From Desulfobulbus propionicus DSM 2032 (GTDB taxonomy: Bacteria; Desulfobacterota; Desulfobulbia; Desulfobulbales; Desulfobulbaceae): a stretch of 32,000 nucleotides of DNA. The position numbers and the translations under genes are program-made. Of this stretch, positions 13,327 through 22,521 are shown piece by piece. The notes under the pieces were generated by a model, which saw only the letters and a program-made list of their open reading frames with translations, was not told the origin of the DNA and searched no databases. Within the stretch, counting starts at the first letter, position 1, and every line of letters begins with the position of its first letter. The DNA is taken from positions 900,001 through 932,000 of the forward strand of contig NC_014972.1 in NCBI RefSeq assembly GCF_000186885.1, written 5' to 3'.

Positions 13327-13599
13327 GAGAATAGGTGTATTGGGGGCAGAACAATCTGTGAGCAATAGACCCGGTTCCGTCGCGGCGAGAGCAACCGGGG
13401 GAACGGGCGGGGCGGGAATCGTGCTGGCCGGTGAATATCTTGACAAGGTGTGCCGCCTGGCTGCGACATCCCCTCCGAAGTCCGCACTCCGGGGACACGT
13501 CCGCCAGAGGACAGGCGAATTGCCCCGCGCGGCGCTGTCATCCGCCGGCAGGCGCCTCGCAACATAGCCATTCTTGGTGGGGAAGTAAACAAGAACACG

Positions 13600-14355
13600 A
13601 TGAGGGATGAGGGATTCGTTGCGCCGACGGCCAAGGTCGCTCTGGTCAGCGCCGCCATGCCACGCCAACGACCGCCGTCTCCGGGAGAGATCATGGACGA
13701 GCACAATGCAGCACCACACGCACGCGACACGGAGGACAGCCGGCTCAACCGGGAACACGGGCATGCCCTGCACAATATTTTCAGCATCATAATCGCCAAC
13801 GCGGAAATGATCGGCGAGGAATCGAGGGGCATGGAGACGCTGCAACGGCGGCTCGACCGGATCATCGCGGCCAGCCGCCGGGGCGAGCAGTTGGTGGACG
13901 GGATACGCTCCCTTTCCAAGGCACGGCATGCGCCCCGGCCCGAACCCACGGAGCAGGCATCGCTTCCCACCGTTGCCGACGGGAGATTGGGCCGTGTGCT
14001 GATCGTCGACGATGAACCCGATGTGGTGGAGATTCTCCGGAGGTACCTTGAACGGGCCGGGTTGCAGGTTCATGGTTTCATCGACAGCCGCGAGGCCTTG
14101 AACGGGCTGCGCCGGGAACCGTTGGCCTACGATCTGGTGATCACCGACCTCGATATGCCGAACCTGGGTGGAATCGAGTTGCGCGAGCAGCTGCGGACCA
14201 TCCGTCCGGACCTGCCAGTCATCGTCATCACCGGCCATGAAGGGCAGTGTTCCGGGGGGCCGTTCTCGCTGTCCGGTGTCACGGAGTGGTTGTCCAAACC
14301 GATCAACCGGAACCACCTGTTGGACACGGTGGGGCGTCTTTTGCCGCCGGCTTGA
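13600..14355 (+). CDS. HisKA (DHp)-like phosphotransfer domain fused to a receiver domain; no HATPase_c domain
   Basis: The H-box-like helix EHGHALHNIFSIIIANAEMIGEE...LQRRLDRIIAASRRGEQLVDGIRSLSK aligns with the H-box region of the hybrid kinase at 24321-25946 (IAHDFNNLLAAILGYAEL...). An intact REC follows directly (VLIVDDEPD, LVITDLDMP, VIVITG, LSKP). The start is uncertain: ATG 13600 or ATG 13693. Confidence 0.7.
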   Translation: MRDEGFVAPTAKVALVSAAMPRQRPPSPGEIMDEHNAAPHARDTEDSRLNREHGHALHNIFSIIIANAEMIGEESRGMETLQRRLDRIIAASRRGEQLVDGIRSLSKARHAPRPEPTEQASLPTVADGRLGRVLIVDDEPDVVEILRRYLERAGLQVHGFIDSREALNGLRREPLAYDLVITDLDMPNLGGIELREQLRTIRPDLPVIVITGHEGQCSGGPFSLSGVTEWLSKPINRNHLLDTVGRLLPPA

Positions 14356-14467
14356 CATTTTCCGGGACAGCCTGTGTAATGGGCGTATGTGGTAGGTGTT
14401 GTGGGCAGAGTTTCTTGAAAATGTTAGACAATATTCCATGTTCCCGTGCTGTGGAACCGGAGAATGG

Positions 14468-15847
14468 ATGGCTGAAATCCTGATTATCGACGATGACCCC
14501 CTGTTCGCGGAAACCGTGGCCGACAAGCTCGACAGCCTGCGGCACACGTCCCGATGCGCGCACACCTTGACCGCCGGCCTTGCCGCGGCGGTCGAGGGCC
14601 GTTTTGACGTGGTACTGCTCGATGTCTGTCTTCCGGACGGCAACGGCCTGCTGGCCATCGATCGGCTGCGTTCCGTGGCCTCGGACCCGCAGGTGATCAT
14701 CATCACCGGCCAGGGAGATCCGGATGGGGCCGAGCTGGCCATCCGTCACGGCGCTTGGTGCTATCTGGAGAAGAGCTCGATTGTCAAGGAGATCACCCTG
14801 CCATTGACCCGGGCCTTGCAGTACCGCCAGGCCCTGAGCGGACAGAAGGCCGTGCTCAAGACGGTGGAGCGCGACCAGCTGGTCGGCGAAAGTCCCCGTT
14901 TCCTCCAATGCCTGGATATGCTGGCCAAGGCGGCGGCAGCCGATGCCAGCGTCCTTGTTTCCGGGGAGTCAGGAACGGGCAAGGAGGCCTTTGCCCGGGC
15001 CATCCATGCCAACAGCCGCCGCAGGAGCGGCAACTTCGTGGTGGTCGACTGCACCGCCCTGCCGGAACAACTGGTGGAAAGCGTGCTTTTTGGCCATGTC
15101 AAGGGTGCCTTCACCGGCGCCGATCGGGCCAATCGCGGTCTGATCCGCCATGCCGACAAGGGAACGCTTTTTCTCGACGAGATCGGCGAGCTGCCGCTGG
15201 CCACCCAGAAAAGTTTCCTCCGTGTCCTTCAGGAACGCACCTTTTGTCCGGTGGGCAGCCAGGAGGAGTGTCACAGCGATTTTCGCCTGATTTGCGCCAC
15301 CAACCGCGATCTGGTGGCCATGACCGAGAAGGGGGTGTTCCGCGAGGATCTGCTCTACCGTCTGCGGGGACTGTCCCTGCACCTGCCGCCCCTGCGCGAG
15401 CGCGACGGCGACATCCCCCGGTTGGTGGAACATTTCCTCAGCCGCTTGGTGCAGCGGTATGGCCAGGAGAGAAAAGAGTGCTTGCCCGATTTCATGGACT
15501 ATCTCACCAGCTACGCCTGGCCGGGCAATGTCCGCGAGCTGTCCCAGGCGATGGAATCCGCCTTTGCCCATGCGGTCTATTCGCCGGTGCTCTTTCCGCA
15601 ACACCTGCCGGTGCATATCCGCACGGCCCATGCCCGAGCCAACGTTCGCGGCCATGAAACGATCCCGGCCGATGTTCCGAGTTCCGAGGCCATTCTTGCC
15701 TGGCGGGAGGCCAAGGATGCCTTTGAGCGCGAGTACACCCAACGGCTTCTCCGCCACAGTGCTGGCAATATCATGGAAGCCGGCCGACTGTCCGGCCTCT
15801 CCCGCACCCGCCTCTACCAGTTGATCAGGAAGTTTCAGCTTGGCTGA
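14468..15847 (+). CDS. Sigma-54-dependent transcriptional activator (REC - AAA+ - Fis-type HTH; NtrC family)
   Basis: REC domain (ILIIDDD, VVLLDVCLPDGNG, IIITG, LEKS). AAA+ domain with Walker A GESGTGKE, the sigma-54 contact loop GAFTGA, ELPLATQKSFLRVLQE and FREDLLYRL. C-terminal HTH GNIMEAGRLSGLSRTRLYQLIRKF. The ATG at 14468 has GGAG 5 nt upstream. The track start at 14396 is an upstream extension. Confidence 0.9.
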   Translation: MAEILIIDDDPLFAETVADKLDSLRHTSRCAHTLTAGLAAAVEGRFDVVLLDVCLPDGNGLLAIDRLRSVASDPQVIIITGQGDPDGAELAIRHGAWCYLEKSSIVKEITLPLTRALQYRQALSGQKAVLKTVERDQLVGESPRFLQCLDMLAKAAAADASVLVSGESGTGKEAFARAIHANSRRRSGNFVVVDCTALPEQLVESVLFGHVKGAFTGADRANRGLIRHADKGTLFLDEIGELPLATQKSFLRVLQERTFCPVGSQEECHSDFRLICATNRDLVAMTEKGVFREDLLYRLRGLSLHLPPLRERDGDIPRLVEHFLSRLVQRYGQERKECLPDFMDYLTSYAWPGNVRELSQAMESAFAHAVYSPVLFPQHLPVHIRTAHARANVRGHETIPADVPSSEAILAWREAKDAFEREYTQRLLRHSAGNIMEAGRLSGLSRTRLYQLIRKFQLG

Positions 15848-16090: not shown

Positions 16091-16106
16091 CGGCATGATC
16101 CTTGCC
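16091..16106 (+). promoter_or_regulatory. Sigma-54 (RpoN) -24/-12 promoter candidate: cGGCATgatccTTGCc
   Basis: GG (16092-16093) and GC (16104-16105) are spaced exactly as in the consensus TGGCAC-N5-TTGC. The element lies about 58 nt upstream of the ATG at 16164. It sits immediately downstream of a sigma-54 activator gene and of a T-rich tract (16069-16083). Confidence 0.6.
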
Positions 16107-16163: not shown

Positions 16164-16568
16164 ATGAACGTGCTGTTGTATGCGGCCAAACAGACGGCAA
16201 GCGGTGAACGGCTGAAACAGTCCATCGAGACATTGACGTCCCTGGAATCCCTGACCGATTGCGGGAGCATCGCGGAATTGATCCAGTATCTGCGAAACCC
16301 CGATCCGTTGCCGGAAACCGTGGTGCTCCAGGCGACAAGCCATCAGGATTTGCAGGTGTTCGAACCCTTCCGTTTTCGGCTGGAAATGGTGTTTTTTGTT
16401 CTGGTGCTGCCGGATGCCGATACAGAGACCGTGGCGCGCGGCCATCAGTTGCGGCCGCGTTTCATCGCCTACCAGGACAGCGATTTCAGCGAGGTCGGCG
16501 CCGTGCTGGCCCGGTTGGAATCCCGCCAGGACCATCGTTTTGGCGCCGGCTCTTCGCGCAATCCTTAG
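16164..16568 (+). CDS. Small hypothetical protein (134 aa); possible degenerate receiver-like alpha/beta fold
   Basis: The ATG at 16164 has GAGGA 7 nt upstream. The alternating hydrophobic-strand pattern (NVLLYAA / TVVLQA / FFVLVLP / RFIAYQD) resembles a CheY-like fold, but the acidic pocket and Lys are absent. The track ORF start at 15894 runs through the promoter region. Confidence 0.55.
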   Translation: MNVLLYAAKQTASGERLKQSIETLTSLESLTDCGSIAELIQYLRNPDPLPETVVLQATSHQDLQVFEPFRFRLEMVFFVLVLPDADTETVARGHQLRPRFIAYQDSDFSEVGAVLARLESRQDHRFGAGSSRNP

Positions 16569-16582
16569 ACGGGGTACTCCCA

Positions 16583-18103
16583 ATGAGTCAGGAACAACTC
16601 TTTGCCTCTTTTCTCCTTGACCGTCAGGCCGATCTCGAGATCGCCCTGCCCGCGGAACAGGTGGTCGAGGCCATGCCCCTCGCGGCCCCGATCCAGCCCT
16701 TGCCCACCGGGGCCTTTTTTCTTGAGGGAATCATGCCGTTGCGGGGCGATGTGATCCCGGTAATCAACCTGAAAAAACGGTTGGCCTTGACGGAAACCGC
16801 ATACGGCGACGATGCCAAGGTGGCAGTGATCCAGTTCAACCGCAAGCGGTACGGCCTGTTGGTGGACGATATCCGCGAAGTGCTGCGGGTTTCCCCCCAC
16901 GCTGTCCAGCCTCTCGATCCCTTTCTTCTCACCGAGGAGACGGTGATCGTCGACCTGATCAAGCTGGACCAGGGGCGGCGGACCCTGGAGCTGCTCGATC
17001 TGCGGCGGCTTTTTCCCACGGGCGGGTCCGGCGTCGACGAGGCCCTTGACCATGACGAGCCGCCACCGGCGGTGCAGCGCAGTTATTCGCAGTTCGTCGT
17101 TTTTTCCTGCCGCCAGCAGATTTACGGCATTCCGGTGGGCGATTCGCGGGAGATCTGCTTTTTCAGCGACATTGACCAGACCTTCAAGAGCGGCAAGGTG
17201 GAAGGCGCCCTGCAGCTGCGCGGTCAGACCATCCCGGTGCTGTGCAGCGCGACCCTGCTCGGTTGCGCGGAAGAAACGATCACCCCCACCGAGGAGACCC
17301 GCATCCTGGTGATGCAGTCGGGGCTTCTGTCCTTTGGTTTGATTGTCGACAAGATCCATCAGATTTTGGTGGTGGCCGACGATGCCATCATGGCCATTCC
17401 GGGGCGTCACCTGCCGCATCTGCGGGGCGTGTGCACCTGCGCGCCCTACAACGACATCATGCTGCTCGATGTTCAGGGGTTGATCGGTTCCCAGGCCGAC
17501 AGAATCAGCGCCATGACGCGGCTGCGCAAGAACAACGGCTCGACCGAGGCGGAGGAGGAATCGGCGGCCCGCCACCTCATCACCGAGCACTGCTATCTCG
17601 TGTTTGCCATCGGCAAGCATTATGCAATTGAACTCAAGGATGTGCAGGAAATCATCGGCTGCGGCGATTGCATGCCGATTGCCGGCGATGGCCTGGTGCA
17701 GGGAATCATCAACCTGCGTGGCCGGATCGTGCCGGTGATCCGCCTGCGCAACTTTTACGCCTGTCCAGACCACAACGTGGTGAGCCGGGACCCCAGCCCG
17801 GAGGACAAGCTGATCATCGGCCGGGCCAATGGCAACCTGGTGGCCTTGCTGGTCGATGAAATTATCACTATCTACAAACAGGAACGGTACCACGCCACCC
17901 CGTCGCTCAGGCCTGAGTTGCAGGCGAAAAAGGACACCCTGGACCGGTTGATCGAGTTCATCAACGGCGAGGGGCTGAAGGAGCATGTGCTGGTTGTCAA
18001 TGTCGCCAATTTGCTGCGTCACCATCTCCTGATCGCGGACCAGGAGACGGTGACGCCCGTGGCGGCGCCGGCGGATTTGATCGATTCGCCGCCAATCAAG
18101 TAA
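16583..18103 (+). CDS. Protein with three tandem CheW-like domains
   Basis: 506 aa from the ATG at 16583, 14 nt after the previous stop. Three copies of the CheW core pattern are present: FLEGIMPLRGDVIPVINLKKRL, VEGALQLRGQTIPVLCSATLLG and LVQGIINLRGRIVPVIRLRNFY. Each is followed by a ...GLLVD/GLIVD/ALLVDEI segment. Confidence 0.85.
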   Translation: MSQEQLFASFLLDRQADLEIALPAEQVVEAMPLAAPIQPLPTGAFFLEGIMPLRGDVIPVINLKKRLALTETAYGDDAKVAVIQFNRKRYGLLVDDIREVLRVSPHAVQPLDPFLLTEETVIVDLIKLDQGRRTLELLDLRRLFPTGGSGVDEALDHDEPPPAVQRSYSQFVVFSCRQQIYGIPVGDSREICFFSDIDQTFKSGKVEGALQLRGQTIPVLCSATLLGCAEETITPTEETRILVMQSGLLSFGLIVDKIHQILVVADDAIMAIPGRHLPHLRGVCTCAPYNDIMLLDVQGLIGSQADRISAMTRLRKNNGSTEAEEESAARHLITEHCYLVFAIGKHYAIELKDVQEIIGCGDCMPIAGDGLVQGIINLRGRIVPVIRLRNFYACPDHNVVSRDPSPEDKLIIGRANGNLVALLVDEIITIYKQERYHATPSLRPELQAKKDTLDRLIEFINGEGLKEHVLVVNVANLLRHHLLIADQETVTPVAAPADLIDSPPIK

Positions 18104-18136: not shown

Positions 18137-20863
18137 ATGGAGGAAACAATGACAACTGGAGCGCAACCACCGATGGGCATGGATCTGACCGTACTGGAGA
18201 CCTGGGAAGAGCCCGGATTTATGGTCGACGGCAAGCGGATCATCACCTGGGCCAACGCGGCGTTTCTCCAAGCCTTCGGTTTGGAGGCGCACGAGGTGAT
18301 CGGCAAGATGACCTGCGAGGAGAGCTGTAATCTGCATCTCTGCGGCACCAAGGACTGTCCGGTGGACAAGGCCGGCCGGATGCACAAACCGGTGGCGGCC
18401 GAGGCAATACGCAACCACGGTGCCAGCATCCGCTATTACCGTTCACTGGCCCGGCCAGTGGGCGAGGATGGCGGTCAAACCCTGGTCACCATGACCGACA
18501 TAAGCGACAGAAAACTGCTGGAAGCGCGGTTACGGCAGATGGAAACCGACCTCAACGTCATCCCTACCCCTGTGCTTGAGATTGACGACAAGTTCACCAT
18601 TACCTTCATGAACCCCGCCGGTGCGGCCGTGGCCGGCCTGACCCCGGACGAGGCCGTGGGCAGGAAGTGCTACGATCTGTTCAAGACCCCCCATTGCCGG
18701 ACCGAGAAATGCGCCTGCGCGCGGGCGATGAAGACCGATTCGGTTGTTTCCGAGCAGACCATCGCCCGTCCCCGGGACGGGGTGATCGTGCCGATCAAGT
18801 ACACCGGCGCGCCGATCAAGGATGCCAAGGGCAACATTGTCGGGGCGATTGAATATGTGCTCGATGTCACCGAAGAAAATAAGCAGCAGCGGCTGGCCGA
18901 GGAGAAGATCGAGAACCTCAATGCCATTCCCACGCCGATCATGGCCATGGACACTGATTTTACCATCACCTTCATGAACCCCGCCGGTGCGGCCGTGGCC
19001 GGCCTGACCCCGGACGAGGCCGTGGGCAGGAAGTGCTACGATCTGTTCAAAACCCCCCATTGCCGGACCGAGAAGTGCGCCTGCGCGCGGGCGATGAAGA
19101 CCGATTCGATTGTTTCCGAGCAGACCATTGCCCGTCCCCGGGACGGGGTGATCGTGCCGATCAAGTACACCGGCGCGCCGATCAAGGATGCCAAGGGCAA
19201 CATCAAGGGTGCCCTGGAGTTTATCCTCGACATCACCGAGGAGGCGCGGCAACGCCACGATGCCAACACCAAGATCGAGAACCTCAACGCCATTCCCACG
19301 CCGATCCTGTCCATCGACACCGACTATACCATCACCTTCATCAATCCCGCCGGTGCGGCCGCCGTCGGCCTCACCCCGGACAGCGCCATCGGCCGCAAAT
19401 GCTTTGACCTGTTCAAAACCCCGCATTGCCAGACCGAACGATGCGCCTGCGCGCGGGCAATGAAGTCCGACACGGTGGTCAGCGAGGAAACCATTGCCCG
19501 GCCCCGGGAAGGCATGATCATGCCGATCAAGTACACCGGCGCGCCGATCAAGGACGCCAAGGGCAACATCACCGGCGCGCTTGAGTTCGTCCTCGACATC
19601 ACCGACGAGGCCCGGCAGCGACAGGAGGCCAACGAAAAGATCGAGAATCTCAACGCCATCCCCACGCCGATCTTCTCCATCGACACCGAGTTCGCCATCA
19701 CCTACATCAATCCGGCCGGCGCCAGGGTTTTGGGGGCGAGCGTCGATGAGTTGATCGGTAAAAAATGTTACAGCCTGTTCAACACCACCCACTGCAACAC
19801 CGAACACTGTGCCTGCGGCCAGGCGATGAAAAGCGATAGCGTGGTCGCGGCCAAGACCGTGGCCAGGGTCAACGGCCGCGAGATCCCGCTCAAGTACACC
19901 GGCGCGCCGATCAAGGACGCCAAGGGCAACATCAAGGGCGCCCTGGAGTTTGCCCTCGACATCAGTGCCGAAACCGGGGTTGAGCAACTGGTGAGCCGGG
20001 CCAGTCAGGAGGTGGCCGAGTTGGTGGCCGATTCCCAGCAGCAGATGGAGGAGGTGCGCGGCAACATGCGGTTGATGGGCGATTCGCTCAACCAGGAAGT
20101 AATCCGCCTCGACGAGTCGGAGACGACCATTCGCAGAATGCTCGAATCGTCCACCGAAATGCTCGGGGTGAGCGAGCAGGTCAACAAGCTGGCCGGCTCG
20201 ATGTCGCGCGAGGCGGAAAATGGTCGCAAGGCCGGAGCCGAGGCCGGCGACAAGATGCGGCAGATCAACCGATCGATGCAGCAGAACAACGAGATGGTCG
20301 CCACCCTGGTGTCCCAGGTGGAAAAGATCGGCGGCTTTGTCGATATCATCAAGGAGATCGCCTCGCAAACCAACTTGCTGGCCTTCAACGCCGCCATCGA
20401 GGCCGCGCGCGCCGGCGATGCCGGCCGGGGGTTCGCCGTGGTTGCCGACGAAGTGCGCAAGCTGGCCGAGAACAGCTCGCGCTCGGCGGTGGATATTTCC
20501 AATATCGTCAAGATGGTGGAGAACGACAGCCGGCAGACCATCGCCGCCATGCAGGAGGGCATGCGCATGCTCGATGACGGCTCCCAGGTGATCAGTACCG
20601 CGCTTTCGGCCATGGACGAGATCTCTTCCGGCATCATGACGATCTCGACCTCGGTCGAGGACGTCAGCGGCCGAGCCGCAGCCTTGGCTGACCACGGCCA
20701 CAAGGTGATGGAGCAGATTCAAGCCGTGGTCACGTCCTCCGGCGAGAACCAAAGGACCACGGAAACCGTGCAGACCTCGGTCGGTGACACGGTCAAGGCC
20801 CTGGACCGGTTGATGGCCTCGAGCAGTTCGTTGCAAGAGGCGGTCAACAGTCTGTGCAAATAG
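18137..20863 (+). CDS. Soluble methyl-accepting chemotaxis protein with five N-terminal Cys-rich PAS-like modules
   Basis: The C-terminal signalling domain has the invariant hairpin tip [37 protein letters not shown]. No hydrophobic TM-length segment was seen by eye. The N-terminal ~620 aa are repeated PAS-like units. The alternative ATG at 18149 has a better SD (GGAGGA, 4-5 nt spacer). Confidence 0.9.
18542..20005 (+). repeat. Four in-frame tandem repeats of 366 bp (122 codons) inside the chemoreceptor gene
   Basis: The anchor TTCATGAACC/TTCATCAATC/TACATCAATC recurs at 18605, 18971, 19337 and 19703, exactly 366 bp apart. The block TACACCGGCGCGCCGATCAAGGA(T/C)GCCAAGGGCAACAT is conserved in all four units. 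Confidence 0.92.
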
Positions 20864-20872
20864 GGTGCATTC

Positions 20873-20910
20873 GGCGCGGCCGGAGCCCGAGAGTCGGGTC
20901 CCGCCGCGCC
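20873..20910 (+). other. GC-rich intercistronic stem-loop between the chemoreceptor gene and the GNAT gene
   Basis: GGCGCGG-CC-GGA-G-CCCGA-GAG-TCGGG-TCC-CG-CCGCGCC gives about 16 possible base pairs and a GAG loop. It starts 10 nt after the TAG stop. No U-tract follows it, and the GNAT SD (GGGAGGA) starts at 20918. Confidence 0.5.
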
Positions 20911-20933
20911 GCCCAGTGGGAGGATATGGTGTC

Positions 20934-21497
20934 ATGACCATTTTTGGCAACAGGATCTTCACCGTGCGTTTGCAGCTGCGGCGCATCGAGCTCGAAGACC
21001 TGCAGCTTTTGGCGCGATGGAGCGGCGACCCCCAGGCCCATGGACAGTACCTGACGCCGGAAAACCATTCCGTCGATCATCTGGGCATGCAGCTACGGGC
21101 GGGGGTATTGTGGAACGAGCGGAACAAGACGTTTTTGATCGAGCTGCGCGACGGCGAGCCCATCGGCACGATCCAATACTGGATTCGCTCCGAGGACCCG
21201 GGAGCGGCGGTGATTGCGGTGAAGATTGCACGGACCGAGGAGCGGAACAAAGGCTACGGGACCGAGGCGCAGAAATATTTGATCCTGTTTCTCTTCAACC
21301 GGCTCGCCATCCGTCGGATCGAGATGTACACCGATGTCAACAACCTGGCCCAGCAGCGCTGCCTGCGCAAACTCGGCTTCGAACTCGCCCAGTCCCTGTC
21401 CTACGCCGATCAACAGGTTCAGCGGCTGGGCTCCCTCTACCGGCTGGATCGGCAGCGATTTGTCCATGAGCCCATCTACCAGTATCCCGATGCCTAA
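20934..21497 (+). CDS. GNAT-family N-acetyltransferase (RimJ/RimL-like)
   Basis: 187 aa from the ATG at 20934, with GGGAGGA 9 nt upstream. The acetyl-CoA-binding motif context is present (RNKGYGTEAQKYLILFLF; NNLAQQRCLRKLGFEL). The track start at 20865 would run through the stem-loop. Confidence 0.85.
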   Translation: MTIFGNRIFTVRLQLRRIELEDLQLLARWSGDPQAHGQYLTPENHSVDHLGMQLRAGVLWNERNKTFLIELRDGEPIGTIQYWIRSEDPGAAVIAVKIARTEERNKGYGTEAQKYLILFLFNRLAIRRIEMYTDVNNLAQQRCLRKLGFELAQSLSYADQQVQRLGSLYRLDRQRFVHEPIYQYPDA

Positions 21498-22521
21498 GCC
21501 GCCAGGGCTTCTTTTTGACCGCAGGTACTACGAGCACGGCATCCCGCAGGTGTCGCTGGAGAACGCGGGCCGGGTGCGCGGCCTCTATCGTACCCTCGAA
21601 GGACCGCAATATGCCGGCCAGCTGCGCACATTCCTCCCGCGCGAGGCCTCGTCGGCCGACATTGAAGCCGTCCATTCGGCCTTTTACCTCGAACAGCTGC
21701 GCGAGCATGTCAATATCGACGATCCCTATTCCTACGACCGCGATACCTATCTGATGGAGCAGAGCCTCTATACGGCGGCCTTGGCCGCCGGCGGCTGCCT
21801 GGAGCTGGCCGATCGGATCCTCGACGGCGAGATCGACTATGGCTTCGCCCTGATCCGCCCTCCCGGACACCATGCCGAACCGGGTCGGGGCATGGGGTTC
21901 TGCGTGTTCAACAATGTGGCGATCACCGCTCAATATCTGCGCCGGGTGTATGGCCTGCGGCGGATTCTCATCGTCGATTTCGACGTCCATCACGGCAATG
22001 GCACCCAGACAGTTTTTTACGAGACCGATCAGGTTTTTTTCGTTTCGATCCATCAGGAAAAAATTTTCCCTTTTTCCGGATCGGCGCGCGAGACCGGCAG
22101 CGACAAGGGACGGGGCTACACCATCAACCTGCCGGTGCACCCGCAGTTCAGCGACCAGGAGTACCTGTATCTGCTCAGCCGGGTTCTCGGCGGGGTGGTG
22201 GAACAGTATCTGCCGCAGATCATCCTTGTTTCCGCCGGATTTGACGGCCATTGCGACGACCCGATCAGCCGTGTCCTGCTGTCCACCCAATGGTATGCCA
22301 CCGTGACGGAACTGCTCAAATACCTGGCCCACGAGGCGTGCAACGACCGGCTGCTGTTCGTGCTGGAAGGAGGGTACAATCCGGACTCGCTGCAGGCCTC
22401 GGTGCTGGTCACGGTGGACAGCCTGCTGCATCCCGCCAGCCGCCGGCCGGGAGTGGTCCATTCCCAACGGGCGGCCAAGATCCTTGAGAATCATCCCCTG
22501 CATGCTTTCTGGACGGTATGA
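21490..22521 (+). CDS. Histone-deacetylase-family zinc amidohydrolase (deacetylase; AcuC / acetylpolyamine amidohydrolase-like)
   Basis: Catalytic motifs are present: RPPGHHA, DFDVHHGNGTQ, SAGFDGH, LEGGY. The ATG at 21490 overlaps the GNAT stop (ATGCCTAA, 8-nt overlap). Confidence 0.9.
   Translation: MPKPPGLLFDRRYYEHGIPQVSLENAGRVRGLYRTLEGPQYAGQLRTFLPREASSADIEAVHSAFYLEQLREHVNIDDPYSYDRDTYLMEQSLYTAALAAGGCLELADRILDGEIDYGFALIRPPGHHAEPGRGMGFCVFNNVAITAQYLRRVYGLRRILIVDFDVHHGNGTQTVFYETDQVFFVSIHQEKIFPFSGSARETGSDKGRGYTINLPVHPQFSDQEYLYLLSRVLGGVVEQYLPQIILVSAGFDGHCDDPISRVLLSTQWYATVTELLKYLAHEACNDRLLFVLEGGYNPDSLQASVLVTVDSLLHPASRRPGVVHSQRAAKILENHPLHAFWTV

Follow-up and report, generated by a model that had tools for sequence, protein, structure and literature searches.

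A cytoplasmic chemoreceptor of Desulfobulbus propionicus with tandem cysteine-bearing PAS modules: member of a widespread family and candidate iron-sulfur redox sensor

We analysed a 32,000-nucleotide stretch of DNA (the window) from Desulfobulbus propionicus DSM 2032 (assembly GCF_000186885.1, contig NC_014972.1, positions 900,001 to 932,000 of the forward strand), which contains a chemoreceptor gene at 18137..20863 on the + strand (all coordinates are those of the window). The gene encodes a protein of 908 aa in which five PAS domains, each with a cluster of cysteines, are followed by a methyl-accepting chemotaxis protein (MCP) signalling hairpin. Translation could alternatively start at Met5 (nt 18149), the residue at which the protein P0215 from a JGI assembly begins; P0215 is 904 aa long, contains the same five modules and differs from the receptor by the single substitution V203I. 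Judging from its sequence and those of its homologues, the receptor is a member of a large, uncharacterised and mostly chemoreceptor-borne Cys-PAS family, and not a singular oddity. We give roughly an even chance to the reading that it is a cytoplasmic redox or O2 chemoreceptor based on iron-sulfur (Fe-S) clusters.

A previous sequence-only reading of this DNA had proposed a sensor of about 620 aa made of five PAS-like modules, an MCP signalling domain with a canonical hairpin tip, and a cytoplasmic protein devoid of transmembrane (TM) segments and HAMP. These proposals are borne out by our analysis. Pfam detects five PAS stretches in the receptor (PAS_4 with E 7e-83, PAS_9 with 8e-68, and the PAS model too) and MCPsignal at aa 685-864 (E 3.3e-37), while NCBIfam returns the generic 'sensory box' model TIGR00229 and, over the C-terminal half, partial matches to models of chemoreceptors. 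The maximum 19-residue Kyte-Doolittle mean is 1.26, well under the level of a TM helix; hydropathy reveals neither a signal peptide nor a TM segment, and Pfam finds no TM-associated sensor domain and, even at E ≤ 1, no match to HAMP. As it has neither a TM segment nor a HAMP domain, we place the receptor in the cytoplasm.

The signalling hairpin (19994..20863, + strand; aa 620-908) has its tip at aa 759, within a tip motif at aa 750-776 (nt ~20375-20473). The full-length AlphaFold2 (AF2) model shows helices at 599-758 and 760-907, with a predicted local distance difference test score (pLDDT) of about 80-85, so that one continuous helix runs from the last PAS domain into the hairpin; the N-terminal PAS domain is modelled with a pLDDT of about 82. 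The signalling half (288 aa) contains a single, non-conserved cysteine. This residue, Cys907 (nt 20855-20857), is the penultimate one of the protein (…SLCK), and the C-termini of orthologues differ from it and from each other (DAVQNL, VNNMCQ, KAVSEM). The receptor has no pentapeptide of the NWETF type.

The first PAS domain is an N-terminal Cys-PAS module of a kind that we call 'type B' (18185..18532, + strand; aa ~17-132), with C60, C64, C69 and C74 encoded at nt 18314-18358. Four tandem Cys-PAS modules follow on the same strand: module 1 at 18533..18898 (aa 133-254; Cys motif at aa 178-194, nt 18668-18718), module 2 at 18899..19264 (aa 255-376; motif at aa 300-316, nt 19034-19084), module 3 at 19265..19630 (aa 377-498; motif at aa 422-438, nt 19400-19450) and module 4 at 19631..19993 (aa 499-619; motif at aa 544-560, nt 19766-19816). 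The motif C-x8-C-x4-C-x-C, preceded at its second cysteine by a histidine as originally described, begins at aa 178, 300, 422 and 544, a spacing of 122/122/122, and Tandem Repeats Finder reports a period of 366 nt across 18596..19964. The description of the array as an exact 122-codon tandem therefore stands for the period but not for the copies: tandem modules 1-3 are pairwise 74-83% identical in DNA and 70-80% in protein, and module 4, the most diverged copy, has lost one codon after the Cys motif. The dN/dS ratio between the tandem copies is 0.3-0.4, and therefore each repeat copy is under purifying selection. A 14-residue strand said to be invariant is indeed found in every tandem module, at aa 221, 343, 465 and 586. 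The count of 20 sensor cysteines is also right, Cys907 being additional.

The cysteines of the N-terminal module correspond to those of the tandem modules in part. Its motif C-x3-C-x4-C-x4-C is present at aa 60 as first read, but it is not simply a re-spaced version of the tandem motif. When the five modules are aligned, C60, C69 and C74 fall on Cys1, Cys2 and Cys3, C64 is extra and the Cys4 column is occupied by Val; thus only Cys1-3 correspond and the fourth cysteine comes from another position. Nor does the statement that a histidine adjoins the same cysteine in all five modules hold: the residue just before Cys2 is His in the four tandem modules, whereas the N-terminal module reads H-x-C and its orthologues mostly have Leu before Cys2 (43/58). 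The conserved unit is not 'Cys4/His' but three cysteines, C-x8-C-x4-C.

We considered and rejected the possibility that the repeat arose as an assembly artefact. At the DNA level its copies are 17-26% different, they show positional orthology with other genomes, and the repeat number is no accident of assembly, because the near-identical and independent JGI protein P0215 has the same five modules.

To place the receptor among its relatives, we scanned one genome per GTDB species with an 11-sequence alignment, obtained 304 confirmed loci and examined the best 80 of these. Orthologues are distributed across Desulfobulbales and Desulfobacterales. The named genera among the best 80 loci are Desulfobulbus, Desulfocapsa, Desulfopila, Desulforhopalus, Desulfogranum, Desulfofustis, Desulfosarcina and Desulfobacter, joined by Geopsychrobacteraceae and by metagenome-assembled genomes (MAGs) of Desulfobacterota, and Desulfotalea psychrophila, Desulfocapsa sulfexigens and Desulfosarcina ovata come in addition from a full-length search. 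The named hosts are all anaerobic bacteria of the sulfur cycle, either sulfate reducers or sulfur disproportionators. The closest loci belong to Desulfobulbus MAGs, where the signalling domain is ~86% identical. The proteins recovered by the full-length search are annotated only as 'PAS domain-containing protein' or 'methyl-accepting chemotaxis protein'. Look-ups of the receptor, P0215 and P0307 by exact protein sequence returned no recorded entry.

The number of modules varies from 2 to 8 across 177 orthologues (mostly 5-7, with a mode of 6), while the geometry hardly varies at all: the tandem intervals measure exactly 122 aa in 742 of 743 cases, and the last Cys1 is separated from the hairpin tip by 211 aa in 170 of the 177 proteins. 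One irregular interval, of 291 aa, occurs in the D. elongatus locus L030. The first, penultimate and last tandem modules of the receptor are 92, 86 and 91% identical to their counterparts in locus L003, and this positional orthology shows that copy number changes through the internal gain and loss of whole modules. Copy numbers from short-read MAGs need care, since assemblies and gene callers break within the 366-nt repeat. The homologues returned by a single-module query (P0001, P0003, P0007 and P0008) are fragments of at most 206 aa with frameshifted tails or abrupt ends.

A 36-sequence alignment of orthologues shows that Cys1-3 are invariant in every tandem module, that the His before Cys2 is invariant in the first three, and that the four N-terminal cysteines are each at least 90% conserved. 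Counting positions from Cys1, so that Cys4 is Cys+16 and the extra N-terminal cysteine is Cys+4, the middle modules of the orthologues have the His before Cys2 in 220/220 cases and Cys+16 in 199/220. Their N-terminal modules carry Cys+4 in 51/58 cases and no conserved His. Across homologues, the strict Cys/His conservation noted earlier in the repeats holds for Cys1-3; the His is not universal, the position being H or D in most of the family and hydrophobic in the N-terminal type.

Beyond the orthologues, we ran an exhaustive profile search of 1.84 billion representative sequences, which returned 1135 proteins at E ≤ 1e-30, and inspected the best 150 of the 1135. Ninety-four of these 150 carry C-x8-C-x4-C in 1-5 copies, and the remainder are giant multi-PAS proteins that score by summation. 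The family list is biased towards multi-copy proteins, and single-copy members with other outputs may therefore have been missed. The members share the core GxKC[YF]DLFKTxHCxTxxC. Pfam finds MCPsignal in 73 of the 94 representatives and a sigma54 domain in none of them (0/94); HAMP and HAMP_2 are common, and HAMP_2, present in 45/94, gives rise to poly-HAMP layouts like that of Aer2. A few of the 94 proteins have TM sensor domains, and one has HisKA_2/HWE_HK together with HATPase_c. In P0104 and many other members, a pair of Cys-PAS domains lies within an Aer2-like chemoreceptor (five HAMP_2, two PAS, HAMP, MCP), and in such poly-HAMP members the Cys-PAS appears to occupy the place of the Aer2 heme-PAS. 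A sister group (P0056, P0079, P0093, P0103, P0111, P0112 and P0151) consists of tandem arrays of 'type B' modules only, of the form GKMTCADLCKTPLCNTxNCTIKNCM, with up to five cysteines at x3/x4/x4/x4 and a period of 114 or 120 aa. Pfam, NCBIfam and the PDB give generic PAS matches only and hold no curated family for Cys-PAS, and a tblastn search of plasmids with one module likewise found only generic PAS domains at ~35% identity.

The results show that Cys1-3 are invariant in 211 modules of the 94 diverse proteins, while the other residues of the family diverge to ~30% identity. The remaining candidate ligands follow a different pattern. Cys+16 is present in 100 of the 211 modules, about half of them, and is sometimes replaced by Cys+4 (18/211); His occupies position +8 in 120 modules and Asp does so in 46, and at position +2 there is Asp in 109 modules and Glu in 40 (D/E together, 149/211). 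Cys+4 and Cys+16 are mutually exclusive, with zero co-occurrence in 429 distinct modules, and in the same set the presence of Cys+4 is accompanied by a change at position +8 from H/D to L/F/V. This exclusivity, combined with the switch at +8, is the pattern expected of alternative ligands at one site.

We then located the cysteines within the PAS fold. A sequence search of PDB chains with the receptor modules returned only LOV and other PAS domains (best E 3e-4), and in the resulting alignment Cys1 falls on the flavin-adduct cysteine of LOV (GRNCRFL). The AF2 model of tandem module 2 adopts a PAS fold with a mean pLDDT of 72 (core 75-86), in which E-alpha (46-50) opens with Cys1 and F-alpha (61-68) with Cys3/4, Cys2 lying in the E-F loop. 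Its top Foldseek matches in the PDB are generic LOV, VqmA and DosP PAS domains (probability 1.0). Given this placement of Cys1-4 in the model and in the PDB alignment, the Cys cluster lines the canonical PAS cofactor pocket; as modelled, the Cys triad is on the face of the domain at which cofactors are bound in LOV, FixL and other PAS domains. A profile check of the sensor region, as the sequence-only reading had suggested, gave generic PAS matches only, and the Cys motif lies inside the Pfam PAS_4 region (e.g. 261-371). With the family profile, a search of PDB sequences reached a best E of 8e-6 (DosP), and hence no family member has a solved structure.

The conservation of the cysteines across diverged repeats and hundreds of homologues argues, at the level of sequence, for a ligand or cofactor site. 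It is against this background that we regard as highly improbable the idea that the modules accommodate a small organic ligand, or do no more than dimerise and act as spacers, with the cysteines as a lineage-specific structural feature without a sensing role. Many PAS domains are indeed free of cofactor, and the modules match only generic PAS models; however, a merely structural feature sits poorly with cysteines that stay invariant while their surroundings drop to ~30% identity, that line the canonical cofactor pocket, and whose fourth partner shows compensatory exchange.

The clustering of conserved cysteines in the pocket could also reflect a metal-free thiol/disulfide or persulfide switch, in which oxidation of the cysteines, or their modification by sulfane sulfur or polysulfide, would alter the PAS conformation; the receptor would thereby report on sulfur species or on the redox state of thiols in the cytoplasm. 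Sulfide or polysulfide is a key signal for the hosts, which reduce sulfate or disproportionate sulfur, and a three-Cys PAS domain, that of NreB from B. licheniformis, does sense sulfide, though via a [2Fe-2S] cluster. A disulfide, on the other hand, needs just two cysteines; here three are invariant, and the compensation at the fourth ligand, together with the H/D position coupled to it, better fits coordination of a single centre. The PAS disulfide switches known from ArcB and PpsR use isolated cysteines. We therefore consider a metal-free switch quite unlikely.

The proposal that the cysteines and histidines point to a metal, an Fe-S cofactor or a thiol switch is thus supported in so far as Cys conservation indicates a ligand or cofactor site. 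We compared the motif with those of known sensors. As previously stated, it is not the heme-c motif CXXCH, which has no match in the receptor; nor that of NreB, for there is no CxxC anywhere in the protein; nor CZB, since Pfam gives no CZB (PF13682) match at E ≤ 1. AirS binds its [2Fe-2S] cluster in an N-terminal sensor domain, through the motif C-x7-C-x-C-x17-C, from which the receptor spacing C-x8-C-x4-C-x-C differs.

By comparison of motifs, drawn from published positions, the nearest precedent for Cys-PAS is OrpR, a sigma54 activator of D. vulgaris Hildenborough whose PAS domain holds a [4Fe-4S]2+ cluster that is redox-sensitive, with C52, C61, C65 and a conserved D/E54 implicated (PMC8359166). 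Both are cytoplasmic PAS domains of anaerobic Desulfobacterota with three fully conserved cysteines, C-x8-C between the first two, D/E two residues past Cys1 and a variable or non-Cys fourth ligand, and OrpR senses redox potential, which resembles the role proposed here for Cys-PAS. The two differ in spacing, C-x-(D/E)-x6-C-x3-C in OrpR as opposed to C-x-(D/E)-x6-C-x4-C in Cys-PAS, and in architecture, since OrpR has a single PAS and a sigma54 AAA+ output while the receptor has a tandem PAS array and an MCP hairpin. We searched 149 proteins for the OrpR spacing C-x8-C-x3-C and found 0 matches; C-x8-C and D/E at +2 are shared. NreB, with the motif CX2CX11C(X2C), offers a second comparison: the S. 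carnosus protein holds a [4Fe-4S] cluster, and the three-Cys B. licheniformis protein a [2Fe-2S] cluster with which it senses sulfide (PMC13478379). As proposed for Cys-PAS, its clustered cysteines bind Fe-S in a cytoplasmic PAS domain, and its three-Cys variant has a labile fourth ligand; it differs in Cys spacing, in its histidine kinase output and in having a single PAS, and the PDB profile search did not retrieve it. The statement that no chemoreceptor sensor of this kind has been described agrees with our searches, but OrpR provides a close Fe-S PAS precedent.

The Fe-S reading was adopted because all the precedents that we found for a Cys-cluster sensor (OrpR, NreB, AirS) bind Fe-S and because the hosts are anaerobes. 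Several observations weigh against it. The Cys spacing is one residue off that of OrpR, a comparison made through the published OrpR cysteine positions, and in roughly one third of the family's modules both of the alternative fourth cysteines are missing, so that a four-Cys site is not universal. The structural models are limited: AF2 gives only a moderate model of module 2 (pLDDT 72) and models the tandem modules poorly within the full-length protein (pLDDT 40-70). No CheA, CheY, CheB or CheR gene lies within the 32-kb window, and the receptor has no match, strict or relaxed, to the methylation consensus [ASTG][ASTG]xx[EQ][EQ]xx[ASTG][ASTG]. EE/QQ pairs do occur in the receptor, for example in SQQQMEEV, and methylation could thus still take place. 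Finally, four thiolates and a His would also suit zinc.

In place of a cluster, each PAS module might contain one zinc ion, structural or regulatory, in the form of Zn(Cys)4 or Zn(Cys)3(His/Asp). The ion would either stabilise the E-F region or work, like the CZB of TlpD, as a zinc-thiolate switch that responds to redox state or oxidants. Three or four cysteines with an adjacent His/Asp make up a classical zinc ligand set, WalK is an example of a PAS domain that binds Zn, and zinc-thiolate sensing is already known in chemoreceptors, CZB itself co-occurring in 3/64 family members. Nevertheless, we find this rather unlikely: the receptor lacks CxxC knuckles, a neighbouring His-Cys pair rarely ligates one mononuclear ion through both residues, and the described Cys-cluster sensors that we found bind Fe-S, in the PAS domains of OrpR and NreB and in AirS's N-terminal sensor domain. 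The named hosts, all anaerobes, are a better fit to an O2-labile cofactor, although Zn is still compatible with them.

Under the Fe-S reading, each module would bind one cluster, most likely [4Fe-4S], through the three fixed cysteines and an exchangeable ligand, as in OrpR. The fourth ligand would vary between modules, being Cys+16, Cys+4 or neither, with the His/Asp at +8 as a candidate in most modules that lack Cys+4. Oxidation or loss of the cluster, or an exchange of ligand, in response to cytoplasmic redox potential, O2 and possibly NO or sulfide, may change the conformation of the PAS domain. This change is envisaged to travel in line, through helical linkers between the modules and the PAS-to-hairpin helix, to the tip, where the receptor would control a CheA kinase encoded elsewhere. 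The quantised module length and the fixed PAS-to-tip distance would preserve the helical register, and the number of modules may set the gain or the range of the response. A co-encoded protein with three CheW domains probably organises the receptor array.

The known O2 and redox cofactors of chemoreceptors are FAD (flavin adenine dinucleotide; Aer, AerC), heme (Aer2, HemAT, DcrA), di-iron (DcrH, ODP) and zinc (CZB). DcrA and DcrH of Desulfovibrio vulgaris are redox/O2 chemoreceptors of sulfate reducers, as is proposed for the receptor, but both are membrane proteins, DcrA with a periplasmic c-type heme and DcrH with a C-terminal hemerythrin di-iron domain. The c-type heme PAS domains of DcrA and GSU0582/0935 have CXXCH and are periplasmic, whereas the receptor has no CXXCH, signal peptide or TM segment. 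Aer2 of Pseudomonas and Vibrio is, like the receptor, a soluble MCP with in-line coupling of PAS to signalling domain; it binds heme b via a His, has no Cys cluster and combines poly-HAMP with one PAS, in contrast to the five PAS and absent HAMP of the receptor. The NCBIfam Aer2 model matches the receptor at aa 683-844 only, with 108.7 bits against a cut-off of 1200. The cytoplasmic TlpD/CZB chemoreceptors share with the proposed function a Cys-containing metal site and oxidant sensing; CZB, however, is not a PAS domain: it is C-terminal, forms a four-helix bundle and holds its zinc in a His3-Cys site. AerC, too, is a soluble MCP, whose two N-terminal PAS domains sense cytoplasmic redox (PMC13401364). 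Both AerC and Aer hold FAD via a conserved Trp, and AerC has no Cys cluster, while the tandem modules of the receptor contain no Trp, the only two of the protein being at aa 23 and 38.

The genes around the receptor form a conserved order: HisKA-REC, sigma54 response regulator, triple CheW, receptor, GNAT, HDAC. The HisKA-REC protein (13450..14355, + strand), identified with Pfam and syntenic in many loci, has no detected HATPase_c domain and may act in phosphotransfer or as a phosphatase, and not as a complete kinase. The sigma54-dependent response regulator (REC-AAA+; 14396..15847, + strand; Pfam Sigma54_activat 5e-64 together with Response_reg) is syntenic at >45% identity in 26 loci. The triple-CheW scaffold protein (16583..18103, + strand; 506 aa; Pfam CheW x3, 1.8e-56) ends 33 nt before the receptor gene and is found upstream of it in 67/80 related loci, many of the remaining loci being incomplete. 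To our knowledge, no protein of three serial CheW domains has been described; in a cytoplasmic array, this one could account for half of a six-membered CheW ring.

The triple-CheW gene is directly preceded by a small ORF (open reading frame) of 134 aa (MNVLLYAAKQ...; 16164..16568, + strand), which has no match in Pfam or NCBIfam and whose product is 67-74% identical in Desulfobulbus loci and 25-50% identical in Desulfogranum, Desulfosarcina and Desulfopila. A candidate sigma54 -24/-12 promoter element, cGGCATgatccTTGCc (16091..16106, + strand), lies 72 nt upstream of it. The pattern GGCAY-N5-TTGC (GGCAT-N5-TTGC in the window) recurs 68-77 nt upstream of the small ORF in 6/8 loci of the Desulfobulbus clade; a looser sigma54 pattern is not found in the window above chance.

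Downstream of the receptor are a GNAT acetyltransferase (Acetyltransf_3; 20934..21497, + strand; Pfam 4e-20), whose start may be as early as 20865, and an HDAC-family deacetylase (21490..22521, + strand; Pfam Hist_deacetyl 4e-94), which overlaps the GNAT stop and whose start is uncertain between 21334 and 21490. GNAT and then HDAC directly follow the receptor in 61/61 loci with enough sequence, with only 45-60% protein identity in distant genera. Acetylation could be functionally tied to the receptor; the duller alternative is that the GNAT/HDAC pair serves polyamine metabolism. A bolder proposal is that the small ORF, the triple CheW, the receptor, GNAT and HDAC constitute a self-contained, sigma54-controlled Fe-S chemosensory unit in which a tandem array of Fe-S PAS modules reads the redox or sulfur state of the cytoplasm and reversible lysine acetylation by the GNAT/HDAC pair takes over from CheR/CheB methylation as the chemistry of adaptation or output. 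We think it decidedly unlikely; if true, it would represent the first iron-sulfur chemoreceptor family.

The neighbourhood also bears on whether the Cys triad captures thiophilic metals or metalloids from the cytoplasm (Cu(I), Cd/Hg, As(III) or Fe(II), for example), the receptor then mediating metal taxis or avoidance. The cluster has no conserved gene for metal resistance or transport. A near-universal presence in Desulfobulbales and chains with five to eight sites each are better suited to a housekeeping redox sense, and such binding is without precedent in PAS domains. With its three invariant thiolates, the site does recall the trigonal S3 geometry of Cu(I) sensors and of sensors of the ArsR/CadC type, with which the variable fourth ligand would agree, but we deem this role very unlikely.

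We found no description of a Cys-PAS sensor in a chemoreceptor in the open-access literature, though a report in a subscription journal is possible. The survey of the PAS family by Xing et al. lists only the NreB type among Fe-S PAS domains (PMC10468136), and the July 2026 review of aerotaxis receptors covers FAD, heme, hemerythrin and other sensors and no Fe-S or cysteine-based PAS (PMC13401364). A literature search for CX8CX4C-like motifs returned only unrelated zinc fingers and dehalogenases. The Cys-PAS proteins are thus best described as a widespread and so far undescribed family of anaerobic sulfur bacteria that combines two known kinds, the Fe-S PAS sensor and the soluble PAS chemoreceptor.

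Should Fe-S binding prove true, it would introduce a new cofactor class to chemotaxis and account for the way in which strict anaerobes of the sulfur cycle, relatives of the cable bacteria among them, position themselves in redox gradients. The size of the family and the simplicity of its motif make it annotatable at once. The variation of module number in whole units of 122 aa at a fixed PAS-to-tip distance offers a natural series for the study of serial PAS-to-hairpin signalling, and the invariable linkage with triple CheW and GNAT/HDAC points to an unstudied chemosensory module.

Two antisense reading frames were also evaluated. An ORF of 818 aa at 18530..20986 on the - strand is not taken to be a gene, since it is a mirror of the receptor ORF in GC-rich DNA and the domain matches all lie on the + strand. 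An antisense ORF of 617 aa opposite the CheW gene has no domain matches; such frames are a usual by-product of DNA with a GC content of ~61%, which is that of the window.

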